Positions 37,746-44,950 of a stretch of 64,000 nucleotides of DNA are shown one piece after another. Position 1 is the stretch's first letter, and the number at the start of each line of letters is the position of its first letter. The stretch comes from Terriglobia bacterium (GTDB lineage: Bacteria; Acidobacteriota; Terriglobia; 20CM-2-55-15): contig CBDCLE010000025.1 of assembly GCA_965218585.1 (NCBI GenBank), positions 96,001 to 160,000 of the forward strand, read 5' to 3'. The notes under the pieces were generated by a model that saw only the letters and a program-made list of their open reading frames with translations, searched no databases and had not been told where the DNA came from. The position numbers were made by a program, and so were the translations under genes.

Positions 37746-37909
37746 ACTTTCATCACCTCATGTTTAACCGTCCGATCGTCGGAAATGCTAGCACATACAG
37801 CTAGTGGGCTTTGCAAGGTCATTCTGTGGCAGAGAGCAGTTGAGGCGCCGCGGGAACAAGGAGTTCGAAGCGACGCCGTGCCCGCGGATGGATCGGCTGC
37901 TCGACCGGC

Positions 37910-40744
37910 TTAAGACTTACCCATGAGGATGAAGGGAGCCCAATAATATGGGTGGGGAAACTCGGATTTTACGTCTATCGCTGCCTGGCGTAACGCCTCC
38001 GGTTTGGACAAACCCTCCAGCAGACCTTCGTAGAAGCGTTTCATCAGAAGAGTCGTCGATCGATCGTTCACCCGCCAGAGGCTGACGACCAACGAAGGCG
38101 TTCCCGCATAAAGAAAACCCCGGGTCAGGCCCAACAGTTCATCGCCTTCGTAGAGGGCACTCATGCCTGTTTCGCAGGCACTCAATGTTGTCAGTTCGGC
38201 TCCAAGTTTCAGGTTGAAGATGTCTACCAGATTGAGCCAGTCATCTCCCAGCTTCAACGATGAGAACATTGGGTTGTCGGCGCGGAACACACCGTGTGCA
38301 GCGATGTGGAGCTTGCCCGCATCCCCGCCGAACTCCCTGAGTCGCTCCACGCTGGCCTCCTCCCCGACAAACACACGCGCATTCGGCAATAGTTCGCGTA
38401 GGACCTCGGCTTCATCTCTAATGGCTGGCGTGGCCGCATCGGGGGCGGCCAGAACCAGATCCGCTCCTGCCTTCCCCACTGTCTTCGCACGGCAAATCTT
38501 CAACACAGAGGTGCTCGCGCTGTAGACCAGGTCGTGGCTGTCCACAACGTACCTAGCCCCGTCGTAAAGTGCCTGGAAAGGAACATAGTGCAATACCTGA
38601 TGGGGGATGATGACCAGGGACTGCCCGGAGAGCCATTCCTCCAGCGGTACCAGAAGCATCTGGTACAAGTCCTGCAGATGATGTCGGACGGCACGAAGCA
38701 GAAGTTGACCGTGATCTTTGATGTAGTCGTCGCTCAGATGAAACTTTGAAAGCTGGAAGTTCAAGCCCTTCAGGCACGCGCGCACGGCACCGGGTTCGGC
38801 AAGGTCGTTCACGAAATGGAATCCGTCGCGACCGATCACAAACGCACAGAACCGATCGTGAACCGTGTAGTACTCGATGAGCACTTCGTTTTCCGACAGA
38901 ATTCCCTGGACCTCTTCGACCGAAGGCATGGACATCGTCTCGAGACTCTCCCATCCCTCCCTCTCCGAACCGGCTTCTCGGAGAAGAGAGATCATTTCCT
39001 GCTCACGTTCGGAGATCTCTTTTTGAATCGCCTTGTCTGCGGCCAGAGCACTCACGGTCGTGCCGACCTGGGACAGCCGGCTGTAAAGTCCGTTCAAATC
39101 CTGACGGAGCTTTTTGATCGCCAATTGTTTCGGGTTCGATTCGTCCGACTGCCAGAGCGTATCGGTGTTCCGCTCAAGGAGATCGATCAAAGTCCGGGAC
39201 TTCGACCGTTCCACAAACTCGAAGGCTTCTTCGGGCCGACCCGCCTGGATTTTCAGCCCGACCAGATTTTCGTAAACCTGATACTTGTCCTTACCAAAGG
39301 ACATGCGGAACTCGTCGAGTTGGATGTTCCCACGCAAGGACTCCATCTCTTCGATCGCTTTTCTGTAGAGGCGCTCGGCCTCGAGGGCGTCTCCTTTGGC
39401 CGTATGGAGAGTTCCGAGAAGGTCATAGCATTGATAGGAGACCCACCTGGCGTGGTAGCCCGATAGATTGTCGAGCGCATGATTCGCCTCATCGATCGCC
39501 TCGTTCCCACGCCCCTGCTCGCGCAGGCTGTCTGCCAGCGTTATCCGAGCATAGGCACCACGGACCATCAACTCCTCTGCCTCAAAGGCCTCCGCAGACG
39601 ATGACGCCAGCGTCTGGGCCGCGGGAAAGTCTCCCTTTCGCTGCAGAATCTTGGCCAGTTGCAGATCCACGCCTGCAGCCTCGACCGCTTTACCGAGATC
39701 TTGAAACATTTCGACTGCGCGGCGGAAACTCTCCTCCGCCGCTCGAGTCTCTCCGCGCTCGGATTGTGCTATGCCAACCAGCGCGAGACATTCGGCTGCT
39801 TCGGCGGGACTGGAGTTCTGTTCGAAAAACGCCTGGGCGGTCTCGGCCAAATCTGCGGCCTCTTGTGAGAGATTCAGCTGGAGGTATATTGCGGCACGCT
39901 GGAGATCGCACAGGGCCAGACGGCGGTCGTCTTCCTGATCACGGTAACGCGGACGAACCTTTTCAAGACTGCGAAGGGCCTCGGAATAACTTCCACGTTT
40001 GAAATAGAGGTTTGCGATGTTCTTGTCCAGAATGTCGAACCAAAGGCCAATCTCGTGCCGGACGCAGTACTCGCGAGCGGTCTCGTAGCTTTGGATCGCT
40101 TCGTCGAATCGATTCAATTCGGTCAGCGCTTCGGCCCGGTTCATTTCGACCGCCACAACCACGATGTACTGCTCGTTCACCTCCGCTGCTTCATGCGCGA
40201 GAGCGTATTCCTCTAAGGAATCCTTGAATCGACCGAGTCGATAGGACAAGTTGCCAAGGGCAACGTGAACTCTGGGCAGATACTCCTCGTCCTCGACGGC
40301 CTCGAGCTGATCCCTGGCTTCCTCGGCAAGACCGCGGGCTCGATCAAATTCACCCAGCGACATCAAGTTCTCTGACTGAGAAACAAGGGTTCGTCCCAGC
40401 TCCCGGCCTGCACCGGCTTCAGTGAATAAGGTTCTGGCTTTCTCGTAGAAGGGTTGCGCCTGGGCCGCTTTCCGCATGTTCATGAACACGTGGGCCTGAC
40501 ATTGATGCGCGAAACCGGCAGCCAAAGGCGTGCCCAGTTCGGACGCGAGCAGTAGATTCGTTTCAGCGAGAGCTTCCGCGAGTTGGCGGTCCTTGGGAAG
40601 CCATTCCCGAATCCGCGCAGAGAGCTCTTCGATTAGTTCTTGGGAGAGAGGGAATTCACTGTCGGCGACAAACGCACGCTGCCCCACCACATCACGAACC
40701 TGGACCAATGCATCCAGGAATTCCTGAACCGAGGAGGGTTTCAC
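37910..40744 (-). CDS. TPR-CHAT caspase-like cysteine protease, cytoplasmic
   Basis: Long TPR-like helical array, AFEFVERSKSR linker, CHAT motifs IIPHQVLHYVPF, LHIAAHG (His), LSACETG (Cys), VVSLW and HPYYWAPF; no signal peptide. Confidence 0.92.
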   Translation of the reverse strand: MKPSSVQEFLDALVQVRDVVGQRAFVADSEFPLSQELIEELSARIREWLPKDRQLAEALAETNLLLASELGTPLAAGFAHQCQAHVFMNMRKAAQAQPFYEKARTLFTEAGAGRELGRTLVSQSENLMSLGEFDRARGLAEEARDQLEAVEDEEYLPRVHVALGNLSYRLGRFKDSLEEYALAHEAAEVNEQYIVVVAVEMNRAEALTELNRFDEAIQSYETAREYCVRHEIGLWFDILDKNIANLYFKRGSYSEALRSLEKVRPRYRDQEDDRRLALCDLQRAAIYLQLNLSQEAADLAETAQAFFEQNSSPAEAAECLALVGIAQSERGETRAAEESFRRAVEMFQDLGKAVEAAGVDLQLAKILQRKGDFPAAQTLASSSAEAFEAEELMVRGAYARITLADSLREQGRGNEAIDEANHALDNLSGYHARWVSYQCYDLLGTLHTAKGDALEAERLYRKAIEEMESLRGNIQLDEFRMSFGKDKYQVYENLVGLKIQAGRPEEAFEFVERSKSRTLIDLLERNTDTLWQSDESNPKQLAIKKLRQDLNGLYSRLSQVGTTVSALAADKAIQKEISEREQEMISLLREAGSEREGWESLETMSMPSVEEVQGILSENEVLIEYYTVHDRFCAFVIGRDGFHFVNDLAEPGAVRACLKGLNFQLSKFHLSDDYIKDHGQLLLRAVRHHLQDLYQMLLVPLEEWLSGQSLVIIPHQVLHYVPFQALYDGARYVVDSHDLVYSASTSVLKICRAKTVGKAGADLVLAAPDAATPAIRDEAEVLRELLPNARVFVGEEASVERLREFGGDAGKLHIAAHGVFRADNPMFSSLKLGDDWLNLVDIFNLKLGAELTTLSACETGMSALYEGDELLGLTRGFLYAGTPSLVVSLWRVNDRSTTLLMKRFYEGLLEGLSKPEALRQAAIDVKSEFPHPYYWAPFILMGKS

Positions 40745-40838
40745 GGTAAGTCGCTTCCTGCTTTCTAACTACGCGTTCTTCCTTTACGCGTTATTTCTAC
40801 GTGACTCCGAATTCCCCTCCTGAAAAGGTGTAGGAAAC

Positions 40839-41456
40839 TTAGCCCAGGATCGGATCCCGGCGATGCACGCAGAAGAGTGTCACCTGCCCATCCGGCAGGT
40901 CCATGGACAGATGATAAGTGTCCTGAGGAACTTCGTCGAACGAAAACTCGCCCACAGGGTTCGTCTGAGTCCGGTAGCGGGTCACTCCATGGGACTCCAA
41001 CCTTACGGGTGTGTTTTCAAAGAAACTCTCCGATTCTGACAGTACCTGGCCGGCCAGAGATACGCGTTCGTCTCCCGCTTCGATCCGGACATCGACGTCC
41101 ACTTCGCCAGCCCGGAAAAGAAGCTGCCTCGGCACACTGCCAACGTGGCGGATACCTACCGGTGCCGGCTGTTCGAAGCTGTCAAAGACGAGCTTGGCAA
41201 CACGGAGCACCTTGCTGACCTTGCCCTCAGCGGGACTGAGGACAGGCTGGAACAGTTGAATACCCCACTCTAGGAGTTCTGCCGGGGGCTCGTTGGCTGA
41301 ATCGTTATTCAGAAAACTCAGCAATTCACTGAATTCATCTGCCTTACTCTGGCACTTCTCGCACGTACTCAAGTGCTGATTCACCGCTTCAAGACTGGTG
41401 TCATCTGCTTTGTTTTCAATTTGATCGATGAGGGTTTCAACTGTTAGATGGCGCAT
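40839..41456 (-). CDS. Soluble zinc-finger anti-sigma-like protein with a C-terminal carboxypeptidase-regulatory-like domain
   Basis: MRHL...HLSTCEKC (H..HxxxCxxC); C-terminal LAGQV...TNPVGEFSFDEVPQDTYHL; no TM segment; GGAG upstream. Confidence 0.75.
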   Translation of the reverse strand: MRHLTVETLIDQIENKADDTSLEAVNQHLSTCEKCQSKADEFSELLSFLNNDSANEPPAELLEWGIQLFQPVLSPAEGKVSKVLRVAKLVFDSFEQPAPVGIRHVGSVPRQLLFRAGEVDVDVRIEAGDERVSLAGQVLSESESFFENTPVRLESHGVTRYRTQTNPVGEFSFDEVPQDTYHLSMDLPDGQVTLFCVHRRDPILG

Positions 41457-41608
41457 CGTGATCTCCGTATCCTGGTTTTTAGGTCCCCAATTATGTCTGA
41501 AGACCCATCGGACGTGTCCCTACGTCTTCATAACAGTAGAGTCATCCGCATCTGTGGAAATACACAGAAAGTCCAGAGCCTCCGCGCTTCGCGCCGGACC
41601 AATACCAT

Positions 41609-41651
41609 CTACTGGATGCCCTTTCGACGAAGCATCGTACGGAGTTTCTCC
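41609..41651 (-). pseudogene. Detached 3' end of the ECF sigma gene
   Basis: Reads (EK)LRTMLRRKGIQ*, in frame with 43762..44296 once the IS and one TSD copy are removed. Confidence 0.88.
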
Positions 41652-41702
41652 GGTGATTATACACTTGACGAACCCTCATAAGGTGCGGCATGATTTTAGA
41701 TC

Positions 41703-42626
41703 ATGCAAGGGATTCGTCGGTTTCTGCGAGAAACGGAATGGAGTATCAGCTTGGCCGATTACGCCAGGTCTGCTGTTGGGGGCAGCGTCATGGCTGCACT
41801 GATATCTTGGCTTCGAGAGCTTTCACTGTTTTGGGGCACTGTAGTTACGATAGGCGCAGGGGTAGTGACTGGGCTAGTGATTTTTTCGTTTTCGCTGTGG
41901 AGGCAGTACAGGGGATGGAAGCTGGATCGCCCAGAGGATGTCATGGTAAAGGAAGTTCCGGAATCTAGGGAGTACAGCGAATTCAAAAAGCAGAAGGATG
42001 AACTTGAAAAACGTCTAAGCACCGTCTCTTCCGAATATGATAGCTATAAGAAAGACACTGAGGATCGGAAGAAGAAAGAACTGGATGGGTTGAATACTCT
42101 TCTTGCGACCGTAGAAGAAAGAGCAAGGCTTCTTGAGGATCAATGCGACGGATACAAGCAACTGGCCGACGAAAATAAGCAGCTATCCGAAGACAGGGAG
42201 AAGGAGCTATCCGGTCTTCGTGGCGCATATGAGGCCCTGAGGGAGAGATACGGAAAGGCTATTCTGTGGGTAAGCGGAAGGACGTTTGAGTCCCGTAACC
42301 TATCTGTGGCGGTTCAGCACGTCAACATTGATGACGTTGAGCTTGCAAAGATAATACGGGGGCTTCTCGCATCACAATTACAGGTTGGCTCGATGGCCAA
42401 TGAAAATTACGAAGTCAAGCACATTCTTCTCCCATTTAGCAACCCGAGCAGCGATGCCAGAATTGTGATCTTCTCTGATGATGAAGTTGGCGGTAGCGTC
42501 AAAGATGCGTTCAACGGATACAACTTAATAGACGAGAAAGTAGCACGGTTTGATCGGAGTTTCGCGGATGGAAATGTCCCTAACGTAGATATCGCTGTCA
42601 TTGTGTTCCCGGAACGAACCAAGTGA
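41703..42626 (+). CDS. IS passenger protein: N-terminal TM helices, coiled coil, unknown C-terminal domain
   Basis: Hydrophobic segment FWGTVVTIGAGVVTGLVIFSFSLW, then a K/E-rich heptad region; lies inside the IRs. Confidence 0.8.
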   Translation: MQGIRRFLRETEWSISLADYARSAVGGSVMAALISWLRELSLFWGTVVTIGAGVVTGLVIFSFSLWRQYRGWKLDRPEDVMVKEVPESREYSEFKKQKDELEKRLSTVSSEYDSYKKDTEDRKKKELDGLNTLLATVEERARLLEDQCDGYKQLADENKQLSEDREKELSGLRGAYEALRERYGKAILWVSGRTFESRNLSVAVQHVNIDDVELAKIIRGLLASQLQVGSMANENYEVKHILLPFSNPSSDARIVIFSDDEVGGSVKDAFNGYNLIDEKVARFDRSFADGNVPNVDIAVIVFPERTK

Positions 42627-42640
42627 TGGATGCCCCAATG

Positions 42641-43534
42641 TTACGCGACCAATTCTTTGTAGGTGAGGCTGTCGGTGTTGACGATGCGCTTGAGGGTGTC
42701 CCTGAAAATGTGGCGGTTGTCGCGGTTGTTGAACCTCCACTCCAGTTCTTCGAGGTAACGGTCAAGATGCTTCGCACTGATCTTGTGAAACGATCCGACG
42801 ATGGATCGCTTGAAAAGCGACCATACGCCCTCGATCCCGTTGGTATGAACGGCGCCGACAACCCACTCCTCTGCGGAGTGGTTGACCGTCTCATGGCGCG
42901 TGTCGTGATCCGCGATCCCCAAGTAAGACTTCAGTTCGTCGGTGTAGATCGCTTCGGCCTCGTCCTTTACCGTGCGGCTGATGAAGTCGTGCAGAGTGTG
43001 ACGCCGCACGTCAGGAATGCGCTCAAGCCGAACCTTGCCCCCGCGCTGGATCGCGCCAGCAACCCAAGTTTTGTTTTTGCGGGAACCACGGCCTACACCC
43101 TTCGCCTTGCCGCCCACAAGGGTTTCGTCCACTTCCACGATCCCGAACAGTGTGGGGCCGTCAAAGCTGTCGTTCCCCATTGCTTCCCTGATGCGGTGAC
43201 AGAGATACCATGCCGTGCGGTAGGCCACGCCCAGCGTCCGACTAAGCTGGTTCGCCGACATGCCTTTCTTCGATTCGCACATGAGGTAGATTGCGAAAAA
43301 CCATTTACGGATCGGCAGGTGGGAGTCGTGCATGATCGTTCCCGAAGTCACCGTGAACTGATGCTTGCAGGATCGGCACTTGAACTTATGCTTCACAGGA
43401 AGCTCGAACACGTTCATATCGCCGCAGCGCACACATGCAACTCCTCTCGGCCACCGCAAACCCTCAAGAGCGCGAAGGCACTGTTCGTCGGAGCTGAATT
43501 TGTCCACTAGGGAGAATAGGTTGATGTCAGTCAT
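42641..43534 (-). CDS. IS1595-family transposase
   Basis: Zn ribbon CVRC...CRSC, VEVDETLVGG, IYTDE, VNHS, HTNGIEGVWS and YLEELEWRFN. Confidence 0.96.
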   Translation of the reverse strand: MTDINLFSLVDKFSSDEQCLRALEGLRWPRGVACVRCGDMNVFELPVKHKFKCRSCKHQFTVTSGTIMHDSHLPIRKWFFAIYLMCESKKGMSANQLSRTLGVAYRTAWYLCHRIREAMGNDSFDGPTLFGIVEVDETLVGGKAKGVGRGSRKNKTWVAGAIQRGGKVRLERIPDVRRHTLHDFISRTVKDEAEAIYTDELKSYLGIADHDTRHETVNHSAEEWVVGAVHTNGIEGVWSLFKRSIVGSFHKISAKHLDRYLEELEWRFNNRDNRHIFRDTLKRIVNTDSLTYKELVA

Positions 43535-43685
43535 TGGAAAACCTCAAAAGAAGAAGCGGAAACCATCGCCGCGAAAACGACCGCCAAAGATGCTCGAACT
43601 GGATGACCACGCGCTCATGGAAAAAATCTTCGGCAAGAGGGTGATGCAGAAGGTCGACGAAATAGTAGAGAGCCGAACTAAATGA
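43524..43685 (+). CDS. Small basic IS-encoded protein (53 aa), divergent from the transposase
   Basis: GGAGA then ATG 43524: MSVIGKPQKKKRKPSPRKRPPKMLELDDHALMEKIFGKRVMQKVDEIVESRTK. Confidence 0.5.
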   Translation: MSVIGKPQKKKRKPSPRKRPPKMLELDDHALMEKIFGKRVMQKVDEIVESRTK

Positions 43686-43756
43686 CTGTAACCATGCGTC
43701 TTTCCAACCATGAAAAGAAGTTTAGCATGGCTGATACTGGTTCGTCAAGTGTATAA

Positions 43757-44296
43757 TCACCGTTTCTCCAGACAGCGGGCTCGTGTCGGGCCGATACTTG
43801 CGACGGGCATCTTGAGCTTCTCGCTGATTTCAGCATAGCCAGGTTCTGTCTGGTCCAGATAGAGAAGTTCCAGCAACTTCCGGCAGCGTTCCGCCATCTC
43901 ACCTATCGCCTCTCGGGCTTTCTGCTCCCTGTCTGAACGTATCCTCGTCTCCTCACTCGTCTCAGTGGGGTCGGGGGTTTCCTCCATACCTTCTTCGTCG
44001 GACAGATCCCGGTGCTTCATCGACCGGATGTGAATGCAGTGACGGGTCGTCGTTGTAATCAGCCAGGAGCTGACCTTCGATTCATCCTTCAGATCCTGAA
44101 GATGCTCGATCAGCTTGACACAAACCGTTTGAAAAACGTCGTTACAATCTGAAGGAGGAAAACCGAACTTGTTTGGAATAGAAAATATCAGACGACGATA
44201 TCGGGTAATGAGCGTTTCCCACGCCATCGACTCGCCCTCCAGACACCGCCGGACGAGCTCAGGGTCGGTCAGGTTCTTGTAGGCATCGGGCTTCAT
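43757..44296 (-). pseudogene. ECF sigma factor interrupted 11 codons before its stop by the IS1595 element
   Basis: DPELVRRCLEG..AWETLITRY, DVFQTV, SWLITT, region 4 YAEISEKLKMPVASIGPTRARCLEK; stop supplied by the IR (CGG TGA). Confidence 0.9.
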
Positions 44297-44544
44297 TTCT
44301 GAATCTTCCTGGCCTTCCAAAAGTTATGAAGCCCAAAACCCAGCATGGAAACTGTGAAGATGACGGCTAGGCCAACGCGCCAGACACCACTGTCAGAATC
44401 CGCTGCCCAACGCTGGTACTCTTGAACGACGCTCGTACCCCCAATGATGGCCAGGGCGAGGAAGAACCCGCCGACTACTTCAAGCGCCAGCGTGTGCGCT
44501 ACCCGAAATGCATCCTTGAAAGCGGTTCTGAATCTACCGGCCAT
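44293..44544 (-). CDS. Small two-TM membrane protein, translationally coupled to the ECF sigma
   Basis: Two hydrophobic segments; its TGA overlaps the sigma ATG (ATGA). Confidence 0.7.
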   Translation of the reverse strand: MAGRFRTAFKDAFRVAHTLALEVVGGFFLALAIIGGTSVVQEYQRWAADSDSGVWRVGLAVIFTVSMLGFGLHNFWKARKIQK

Positions 44545-44683: not shown

Positions 44684-44950
44684 ATGAAGGATTTGGGCGA
44701 GGCGATCAACGACGCCCTATCCGATTCCACGGGAATCAGCGAAGCGATCCAAAATGTCCGGGACTCCGGATACGATGTATATCTGGTTCTGGAAGCCACC
44801 ATCGGATTCAACCGGCAGGCAAAGGAAGGCGACGCGGAAGACGAAGAAGAGGGCGTCATGCGAAGTGAGATTCAACTCCAGGTTAACGCTCAGGATATGA
44901 AGTTTCTCAAGTCCCTGAAAATCAAGGTTGATGACCTGGATAGTCCATAA
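44684..44950 (+). CDS. Small acidic hypothetical protein
   Basis: LGEAINDALSDS...GYDVYLVLEATIGF...DMKFLKSLKI; true start may lie slightly upstream. Confidence 0.7.
   Translation: MKDLGEAINDALSDSTGISEAIQNVRDSGYDVYLVLEATIGFNRQAKEGDAEDEEEGVMRSEIQLQVNAQDMKFLKSLKIKVDDLDSP

Follow-up and report, generated by a model that had tools for sequence, protein, structure and literature searches.

The 64,000-nucleotide stretch of Terriglobia bacterium DNA analysed here (contig CBDCLE010000025.1, positions 96,001 to 160,000; hereafter the window, with positions counted from its first letter) contains, between positions 37,910 and 44,544, genes for a sigma factor of the extracytoplasmic function (ECF) type, a soluble zinc anti-sigma-like protein of 205 amino acids (aa) that we name ASF, and a protease that joins tetratricopeptide repeats (TPR) to a CHAT domain. 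We find that this sigma/ASF/CHAT trio is a real unit, and that the module it forms is real, conserved and uncharacterised. As to how it works, we judge the case about evenly balanced for a CRISPR-free, self-contained cytoplasmic protease-gated anti-sigma switch of Acidobacteriota.

The locus comprises four genes, all on the minus strand, in the order two-transmembrane-segment (2-TM) protein, ECF sigma, ASF and TPR-CHAT, with an insertion sequence (IS) between sigma and ASF. An initial annotation of the window had described four co-oriented genes once the IS is removed, the first two of them coupled through an ATGA overlap. Both descriptions hold: all parts were found in place, and the ATG start of sigma at 44296 overlaps the TGA stop of the 2-TM gene, an arrangement that points to translational coupling. 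The sigma gene (43757-44296), whose 3' end is cut by the IS, matches TIGR02937 (6.7e-22) and Sigma70_r2 (4.4e-9), while the 2-TM gene (44293-44544) encodes 83 aa with hydrophobic segments at residues 15-41 and 54-75 and is without a Pfam family above cut-off.

The initial annotation had called for a survey of the trio across genomes, and co-occurrence turned out to extend far beyond synteny. A scan of one genome per species, made with a close ASF alignment as query, yielded 22 loci, for which neighbours were called by tblastn; by their record titles, all belong to Acidobacteriota (Terriglobia, Solibacteraceae and Candidatus Sulfopaludibacter). Sigma lies upstream of ASF in every one of these, the 2-TM gene is present in all 21 that have room upstream, and CHAT lies downstream in 21 of the 22, being cut by a contig end in four loci and matched as two pieces in four (L007, L012, L014 and L022). 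The sole close locus without CHAT (L024) has an ASF frame broken near residue 67, which may be an assembly error. Since the wider neighbourhood of this close set is syntenic, vertical inheritance alone could explain it. It is therefore more informative to consider the distant set of 35 loci with 7-kb flanks, picked by distant ASF paralogues (about 25-35% identical) after 24 of 400 other Acidobacteriota genomes, from nine other families, had given full-length or beta-domain matches. When these loci were scanned with hidden Markov models (HMMs) built from the close clade, sigma, ASF and CHAT were all found within 7 kb in 28 of the 35, in the order sigma-ASF-CHAT in 24, with CHAT between sigma and a more distant ASF in two, and with CHAT a few kb away in two; the order sigma-CHAT-ASF-subtilase is seen in L067 and L069. 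ASF loci number up to seven in one genome, four of those seven having all three genes, and another genome has three.

The 2-TM gene was not found in the 35 distant loci with an HMM built from only 10 sequences and, as judged by these comparisons, belongs only to the close clade. Because the flanks of the distant cassettes differ as well, it is the trio, and not the neighbourhood, that is conserved. Protein distances also correlate across loci (r=0.82 for CHAT and ASF, a value reached in 0 of 2000 permutations), and in 15 of 27 cases all three proteins have their nearest neighbour in one and the same locus; the cassettes have therefore been inherited and duplicated as units, although linkage alone would produce this. 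Look-alike clusters in a protein atlas have few labelled members, mostly from Chloroflexota or Acidobacteriota, and are a lead only.

ASF (40839-41456) is soluble and is predicted to have two domains, a zinc anti-sigma domain at the N-terminus (residues 1 to about 70) and a beta-sandwich at the C-terminus, joined by a linker. It has no hydrophobic segment, and its putative ligands H3, H28, C32 and C35 (H28-x3-C32-x2-C35), invariant among 16 close homologues, have the spacing of zinc anti-sigma factors, H/C-x(23-26)-H-x3-C-x2-C. The Pfam model zf-HC2 gives 16.5 bits, below its cut-off of 22.2. With a profile built from 40 members of the family, matches are obtained to the anti-sigma domains of RsiW (6e-7), ChrR (8.5e-5) and DdvA (8rlz_A, 7.5e-4). 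The C-terminal part matches CarboxypepD_reg weakly (3.7e-5, below the Pfam cut-off). An AlphaFold2 model with a predicted local distance difference test score (pLDDT) of 86 places helices at 6-13, 19-31, 33-53 and 59-69, followed by a low-confidence linker and a beta-sandwich at 84-197 that holds a long conserved loop (93-109). The closest fold match in Foldseek is ChrR, a soluble two-domain anti-sigma factor, at E 3e-3; no structure matched the ASF model at E of 0.001 or below. An exhaustive profile-free search recovered 384 cluster representatives at E of 1e-10 or below, mostly full length and about 30-35% identical. The earlier description of this protein as lacking transmembrane segments, with an HxxxCxxC motif and a C-terminal beta domain, is thus borne out by the ligands, the hydropathy and the model.

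Taken together, the ligand spacing and the profile matches support the presence of a zinc anti-sigma domain in ASF. ASF adjoins an ECF sigma gene in all 22 close loci and in 33 of the 35 distant ones, and homology together with this adjacency leads us to infer that its N-terminal domain would hold the sigma factor. The most constant part of ASF is the portion that faces CHAT in the model described below, not the anti-sigma helices. Consistent with this pattern, a short ASF subfamily of 160-175 aa, found in eight cassettes (L078, L079, L083, L084 and L086-L089), lacks the zinc helices and the HxxxCxxC motif while retaining the last helix, the linker and the sandwich.

The TPR-CHAT protease (944 aa; 37910-40744) matches CHAT at 4.8e-63 and TPR_12 at 3.1e-25. 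It consists of about 23 helical pairs up to approximately residue 600, followed by a caspase-fold CHAT domain at 690-943, and its AlphaFold2 model (pLDDT 86, predicted template modelling score 0.80) accordingly shows a long TPR superhelix leading into a caspase-fold domain. The top solved match in Foldseek is Csx29 in the Cas7-11/Csx29/Csx30 complex (8eey_B, 2.4e-16), with separase at about 1e-14 and DdvA at about 1e-12. The dyad His817 (in AHG) and Cys857 (in SAC) is invariant in 40 of 40 aligned relatives, and since the protein has no transmembrane segment we read it as cytoplasmic. Fold, dyad and topology all agree with the earlier view of this gene product as a cytoplasmic TPR-CHAT protein with intact catalytic motifs. 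The same genome encodes a second, unrelated CHAT protein (G000:C2:39019-41571, L003; 850 aa, HMM 7.9e-30), flanked by two 471-aa open reading frames (ORFs); the opposite strand carries an ECF sigma gene at a distance of about 5 kb, and no ASF lies close by.

A prediction of the complex between CHAT residues 151-944 and ASF, both given as 40-row alignments, supports direct ASF-CHAT binding. This multimer prediction, also proposed in the initial annotation, scored 0.71 (runs of 0.71, 0.73 and 0.71), against 0.00 for the best of three controls; at least 88% of contacts are common to the runs, and pLDDT is 70 or more for the partner. The predicted interface comprises CHAT residues 562-565, 659-688, His817 and 823 on one side and ASF residues 90-99, 106-113, 120-145 and 167-172 on the other. 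In the model, a face of the ASF sandwich (120-145 and 167-172) packs on CHAT helices 659-688, while ASF 90-99 and 106-113, corresponding to the conserved loop with its flanking residues, appear in the contact list alongside CHAT His817 and 823.

The gap between sigma and ASF holds a family-specific, promoter-like motif consisting of TGTATTTT, a spacer of about 16 nucleotides and a short -10-like box. In the close clade it reads TGTATTT(T), about 16 nucleotides, then CTC(T/A), in 23 of 23 sequences. The copy in the window (TGTATTT, 16 nucleotides, CTCT; 41564-41538, minus strand) lies between the IS end and the ASF start; it is intact, makes a candidate cognate ECF promoter for the ASF-CHAT unit, and is the best-scoring site of a whole-genome scan, although its own -35 half was in the training set. 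Among the distant cassettes, 18 of 35 loci have a -35-like TGT[A/C]TTTT on the coding strand no more than 150 nucleotides upstream of ASF, where 0.36 would be expected from the overall frequency of the box; this count should be read with the kinship of the loci in mind, as the samples are not independent. A control window inside the gene gave 0 matches, and one-off variants of the motif occur in several more distant loci. The -10-like box varies by cassette lineage (CTCT, CACTGT, GACTTAA or TCTGTT) while the -35-like half stays constant, the short-ASF cassettes having the variant TGTCTTTTT-N15-CACTGT. A constant -35 element combined with a lineage-specific -10 element is the pattern that would be expected of an ECF sigma family. 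Upstream of the 2-TM-sigma operon, TGTATTTT was considered and rejected; part of the clade has a sigma-70-like pattern there instead.

Extra copies of the motif, each with the -10 box of its own locus, precede neighbouring genes in distant cassettes. According to Pfam, the 17 ORFs downstream of these copies include six S8 subtilases (four with a fervidolysin-type prodomain), two Calx-beta/DUF4214 proteins, two Rieske proteins and seven other or unnamed products. S8 subtilases occur in eight distant loci overall, and an S8 gene stands beside ASF in two loci that have no CHAT. Two sigma-ASF pairs without CHAT (L074 and L075) retain the TGTATTTT motif ahead of ASF; the genes after them encode MscL and an S9 prolyl-oligopeptidase-family protein.

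These observations lend themselves to the protease-gated switch introduced above. In such a switch the ECF sigma would be sequestered by the zinc anti-sigma domain of ASF, and the C-terminal beta-sandwich would dock on the helices ahead of the CHAT domain, with the conserved loop predicted to sit at the catalytic His. The long TPR array would read a cytoplasmic signal and turn the protease on, whereupon the docked CHAT would cut or destabilise ASF and release sigma, by analogy with Csx29, Csx30 and CASP-sigma. The freed sigma could then read the TGTATTTT promoter ahead of ASF-CHAT, giving feedback on inhibitor and protease alike, and across the many paralogous cassettes it may also drive secreted S8 subtilases and other exported or surface proteins. 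The initial annotation had put forward a TPR-CHAT/anti-sigma/sigma pathway of this kind; its co-occurrence, its independence of CRISPR, the zinc domain, the Csx29/separase fold and the predicted ASF-CHAT binding are now backed by the comparisons above and below, and the rest of it stands by analogy. It had not noted that the 2-TM gene is confined to the close clade, that the module has a promoter motif of its own or that sigma here has lost a conserved C-terminal tail.

A number of points weigh against this switch. Every mechanistic step, from sigma binding and cleavage to promoter use and the signal, is a prediction or an analogy, and adjacent genes that are inherited together yield congruent trees without any interaction. 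Of 80 solved complexes 58 reach the level of the complex score, as do 2 of 110 mismatched pairs, counts that are only rough given the custom alignments, and a solved Csx29-Csx30 complex exists, though the ASF profile did not match Csx30. The eight short ASFs without zinc helices call anti-sigma function in those cassettes into question, and seven of the 35 distant loci have no CHAT within 7 kb (five with sigma and ASF only, two with ASF alone). The invariant Arg103 in the contact loop is retained in seven of seven ASFs without a nearby CHAT; the contact loop is therefore not tied to an adjacent CHAT, and Arg103 finds no support as a CHAT-specific scissile residue. In the genome that carries the window, sigma is truncated, a two-block weight matrix and a loose pattern (nine matches, about the number expected by chance) gave no convincing second promoter site, and no linked subtilase was found, the sole subtilase-like ORF (C10, 1.2e-6) not being beside a match; the only visible target here is therefore ASF-CHAT itself.

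Two other mechanisms would account for much of the same evidence. The predicted interface would look alike if ASF were a securin-like inhibitor rather than a substrate, which again tells against the switch. ASF could then be a double inhibitor whose N-terminus holds sigma while the sandwich and the 93-109 loop block CHAT as a pseudosubstrate, with the input coming through the zinc/thiol centre of ASF (as in RsrA and ChrR) or through ASF turnover, and with loss of ASF freeing both sigma and an effector protease. The inclusion of catalytic His817 in the interface, the presence of separase-securin complexes among the best fold matches of CHAT and the resemblance of ASF to the soluble two-domain sensor ChrR are all in keeping with this, as is the finding that the sole detectable motif target in this genome is ASF-CHAT, which is what would be expected if the protease were the output. 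We nevertheless think the double inhibitor unlikely: short ASFs that have lost the zinc ligands still lie between sigma and CHAT, the long conserved TPR array suggests that CHAT is a sensor, and Csx30, the characterised partner of a TPR-CHAT protein, is a substrate according to PMC10028731. Alternatively, sigma and ASF may be an ordinary sigma/anti-sigma pair and CHAT a mere product of the regulon, with substrates of its own and no part in sigma release. ASF and CHAT do lie behind a candidate sigma-dependent promoter, the seven ASF loci without CHAT fit such an arrangement, and PMC7826278 warns that neighbours of ECF sigma genes may be targets and not regulators. Against this stand the strong, controlled prediction of ASF-CHAT binding, the persistence of the trio over repeated rounds of duplication and a divergence in sequence of about 70%, and the fact that conservation within ASF is highest in the domain with the predicted CHAT contacts, and we regard a purely downstream CHAT as decidedly unlikely.

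The module was also proposed to be independent of CRISPR, and the surroundings agree with this. No CRISPR-like direct repeats are present in the 64-kb window, and no Cas1 was found in the 95.5%-complete assembly; Cas7-11 was not searched for, and the ORFs of the window were not all scanned for cas genes. PADLOC gave no meaningful match. The neighbours of the locus in the close clade are housekeeping genes, namely secDF, tgt, genes for ABC ATPases and one for a glycosyltransferase. These results bear on the suggestion of a role in anti-phage defence or abortive infection, in which a phage product would be sensed by the TPR array and a defence programme set off by the protease. The nearest characterised relatives do serve CRISPR and CBASS defence (PMC10028731 and PMC11506125), but with no PADLOC family, no Cas1, no repeat array and a close-clade locus that is vertically inherited amid housekeeping genes, we consider a defence function very improbable. 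Such a function concerns the biological role of the module, and it does not exclude any of the mechanisms weighed above.

Among known systems, the soluble two-domain anti-sigma factor ChrR, which controls sigmaE in Rhodobacter sphaeroides, resembles ASF in pairing an N-terminal zinc-binding helical domain with a C-terminal beta domain. The C-terminal domain of ChrR is a cupin, and ChrR responds to singlet oxygen, whereas that of ASF is an immunoglobulin-like, CarboxypepD_reg-type sandwich predicted to dock on the protease. The logic of a cytoplasmic protease, a soluble anti-sigma factor and an ECF sigma is shared with CalpL-CalpT-CalpS, in which a type III CRISPR Lon-SAVED protease cuts a soluble anti-sigma factor and frees an ECF sigma. 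CalpL is, however, a CRISPR-linked, Lon-type protease activated by cyclic oligoadenylate, and its families are unrelated to those of the module.

The protease and regulatory arm of type III-E CRISPR systems (the craspase arm) offers a closer parallel. Its protease, Csx29, is likewise a cytoplasmic TPR-CHAT protein and gives the best fold match of CHAT among solved structures, and an ECF-type sigma is encoded with it. The N-terminal domain of Csx30 binds CASP-sigma, and a loop in the C-terminal domain is where Csx30 is recognised and cut (PMC10028731), so that in both cases a two-domain partner offers its N-terminus to an ECF-like sigma and its C-terminal domain to the protease, by prediction in the case of ASF. 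On the other hand, the window and assembly lack the array and Cas1 noted above, the Csx29 model NF041237 gives CHAT only 41 bits against a cut-off of 300, and ASF combines a classical zinc anti-sigma domain with a beta-sandwich and is not Csx30-like; in sequence comparison of the ASF profile with the PDB, Csx30 was not among the 22 matches at E of 1 or below. The TPR array of CHAT is also much longer, and its activating signal cannot be a target RNA bound by Cas7-11. Given the absence of CRISPR context, a score far below the Csx29 cut-off and an ASF that is not Csx30, the module is best described as working like the craspase arm without being a member of it.

DdvA/DdvS of Myxococcus xanthus unites the same elements, namely an ECF sigma, a zinc anti-sigma domain and a TPR-CHAT module (PMC11506125). 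DdvA is described there as a single, dimeric transmembrane polypeptide with a periplasmic TPR-CHAT part and an incomplete active site. In the present module, by contrast, the protease is separate and cytoplasmic and the anti-sigma factor has no transmembrane segment; no fused ASF-CHAT form was found among proteins of 360-2000 aa, which is weak evidence.

A third precedent concerns genomic context. Actinobacterial ECF54 sigmas adjoin conserved carboxypeptidase-, subtilase- and CHAT-domain proteins, and proteolytic control has been proposed for them (as summarised in the review PMC8999054), while PMC7826278 describes ECF54 as actinobacterial and without an anti-sigma factor. The same neighbour domains recur here, with CHAT and a weak CarboxypepD_reg match in the window and S8 subtilases in the eight distant loci. 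Unlike in those descriptions, the hosts here are Acidobacteriota and the carboxypeptidase-like protein bears a domain of the zinc anti-sigma type; NCBIfam assigns sigma to the generic ECF superfamily only. To call the locus an undescribed system, as the initial annotation did, was therefore an overstatement, as ECF54 neighbours with the same three domain types are already mentioned in PMC8999054. Because these three domain types surround both ECF54 and the module, the context of the module has probably been glimpsed before, with the carboxypeptidase-like protein unrecognised as an anti-sigma factor. In the full-text literature on a stand-alone cytoplasmic module of ECF sigma, zinc anti-sigma factor and TPR-CHAT, we found only the CRISPR-linked systems, DdvA and the ECF54 remark, though the supplements of PMC7826278 (ECF group descriptions) and table S7 of PMC11506125 could hold a description of such a module.

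To date, the known cases of ECF sigma release gated by a caspase-fold protease are CRISPR-linked systems and one myxobacterial membrane protein. If the protease-gated switch is correct, a stand-alone cytoplasmic version would be widespread, and present in multiple copies, in a dominant soil phylum, which would make this logic a general signalling device and would raise the question of what turns on a TPR-CHAT protease without a Cas effector. The ECF54 'carboxypeptidase-like' neighbour would likewise be reinterpreted as an overlooked anti-sigma factor. The module offers defined parts for experiment: a protease, a substrate-like partner, a sigma factor, a promoter motif and candidate output genes. 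Going further, we tentatively propose, while regarding the whole as rather doubtful, that Acidobacteria run up to seven CRISPR-free caspase-sigma sensors per genome, in each of which a TPR-CHAT protease that itself reads a ligand or peptide of the cytoplasm would cut the ASF sandwich and the sigma would read a private TGTATTTT-type promoter for secreted subtilases and surface proteins, and that the type III-E craspase arm would be a CRISPR-captured relative of this older housekeeping design.

In the genome analysed here the module has been interrupted. The IS (41652-43761; 2,110 bp) has perfect terminal inverted repeats of 23-24 nucleotides (41651-41674 and 43739-43762) and is flanked by an 8-bp direct duplication, GTTTCTCC, read from the sequence at 41644-41651 on the left and identical at 43762-43769 on the right. 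It belongs to the IS1595 family, as shown by these repeats, the 8-bp target duplication and a transposase of 297 aa with a zinc ribbon (42641-43534, minus strand; DDE_Tnp_IS1595 1.7e-37, Zn_ribbon_IS1595 1.7e-11, NF033547 3.7e-63). It also carries a passenger ORF of 307 aa on the plus strand (41703-42626), with a transmembrane segment at residues 40-66, a coiled coil and sub-threshold coiled-coil-type matches only. The IS is present as a single copy in the assembly, where blastn of the genome finds only itself. Public runs from two studies contain contigs that bridge both of its junctions and none that joins across it; this makes the insertion a real one, with no sign of polymorphism, bearing in mind that contigs cannot show rare alleles. 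Depth in these public contigs is the same over the passenger ORF as over the flanks but far higher over the transposase part, a pattern that would fit related transposases, common in the same samples, that lack the 307-aa passenger. There is no RNA dataset among the public runs listed for the locus.

The IS entered 11 codons ahead of the sigma stop, so that the frame now consists of 178 native codons and one foreign codon, with a stop within the IS end (43757). The last 11 codons and the stop are left orphaned at 41609-41643 (minus strand), where an in-frame reading matches the basic tail of the orthologues; together with the 178 native codons they restore the 189-aa sigma given in the initial annotation. 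By a by-eye reading of C-termini, this basic tail (pattern KLRxxLRRRGI) is present in 20 of 23 listed orthologue ORFs, the rest being broken or split frames. As intact orthologues carry the conserved tail at the clipped site, sigma here is without the end of its last, -35-reading helix. The insertion leaves the promoter motif, ASF and the protease intact, but because it takes the conserved C-terminal tail of sigma, this copy of the module is probably weakened or dead, whichever mechanism applies.

Two features of the immediate surroundings may be added. Downstream, an ABC ATPase gene follows directly after the CHAT stop (37746-37909); related genomes (L004-L023) have, between CHAT and the ABC ATPase genes, a methylmalonyl-CoA mutase-like gene of about 530 aa (a label given by eye from translations) that is missing here. 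Upstream and divergent from the 2-TM-sigma operon lies an acidic ORF of 88 aa (44684-44950, plus strand), which matched no Pfam or PADLOC family. It is 51-78% identical in 18 related loci, and in other genomes its frame begins about eight codons further upstream.

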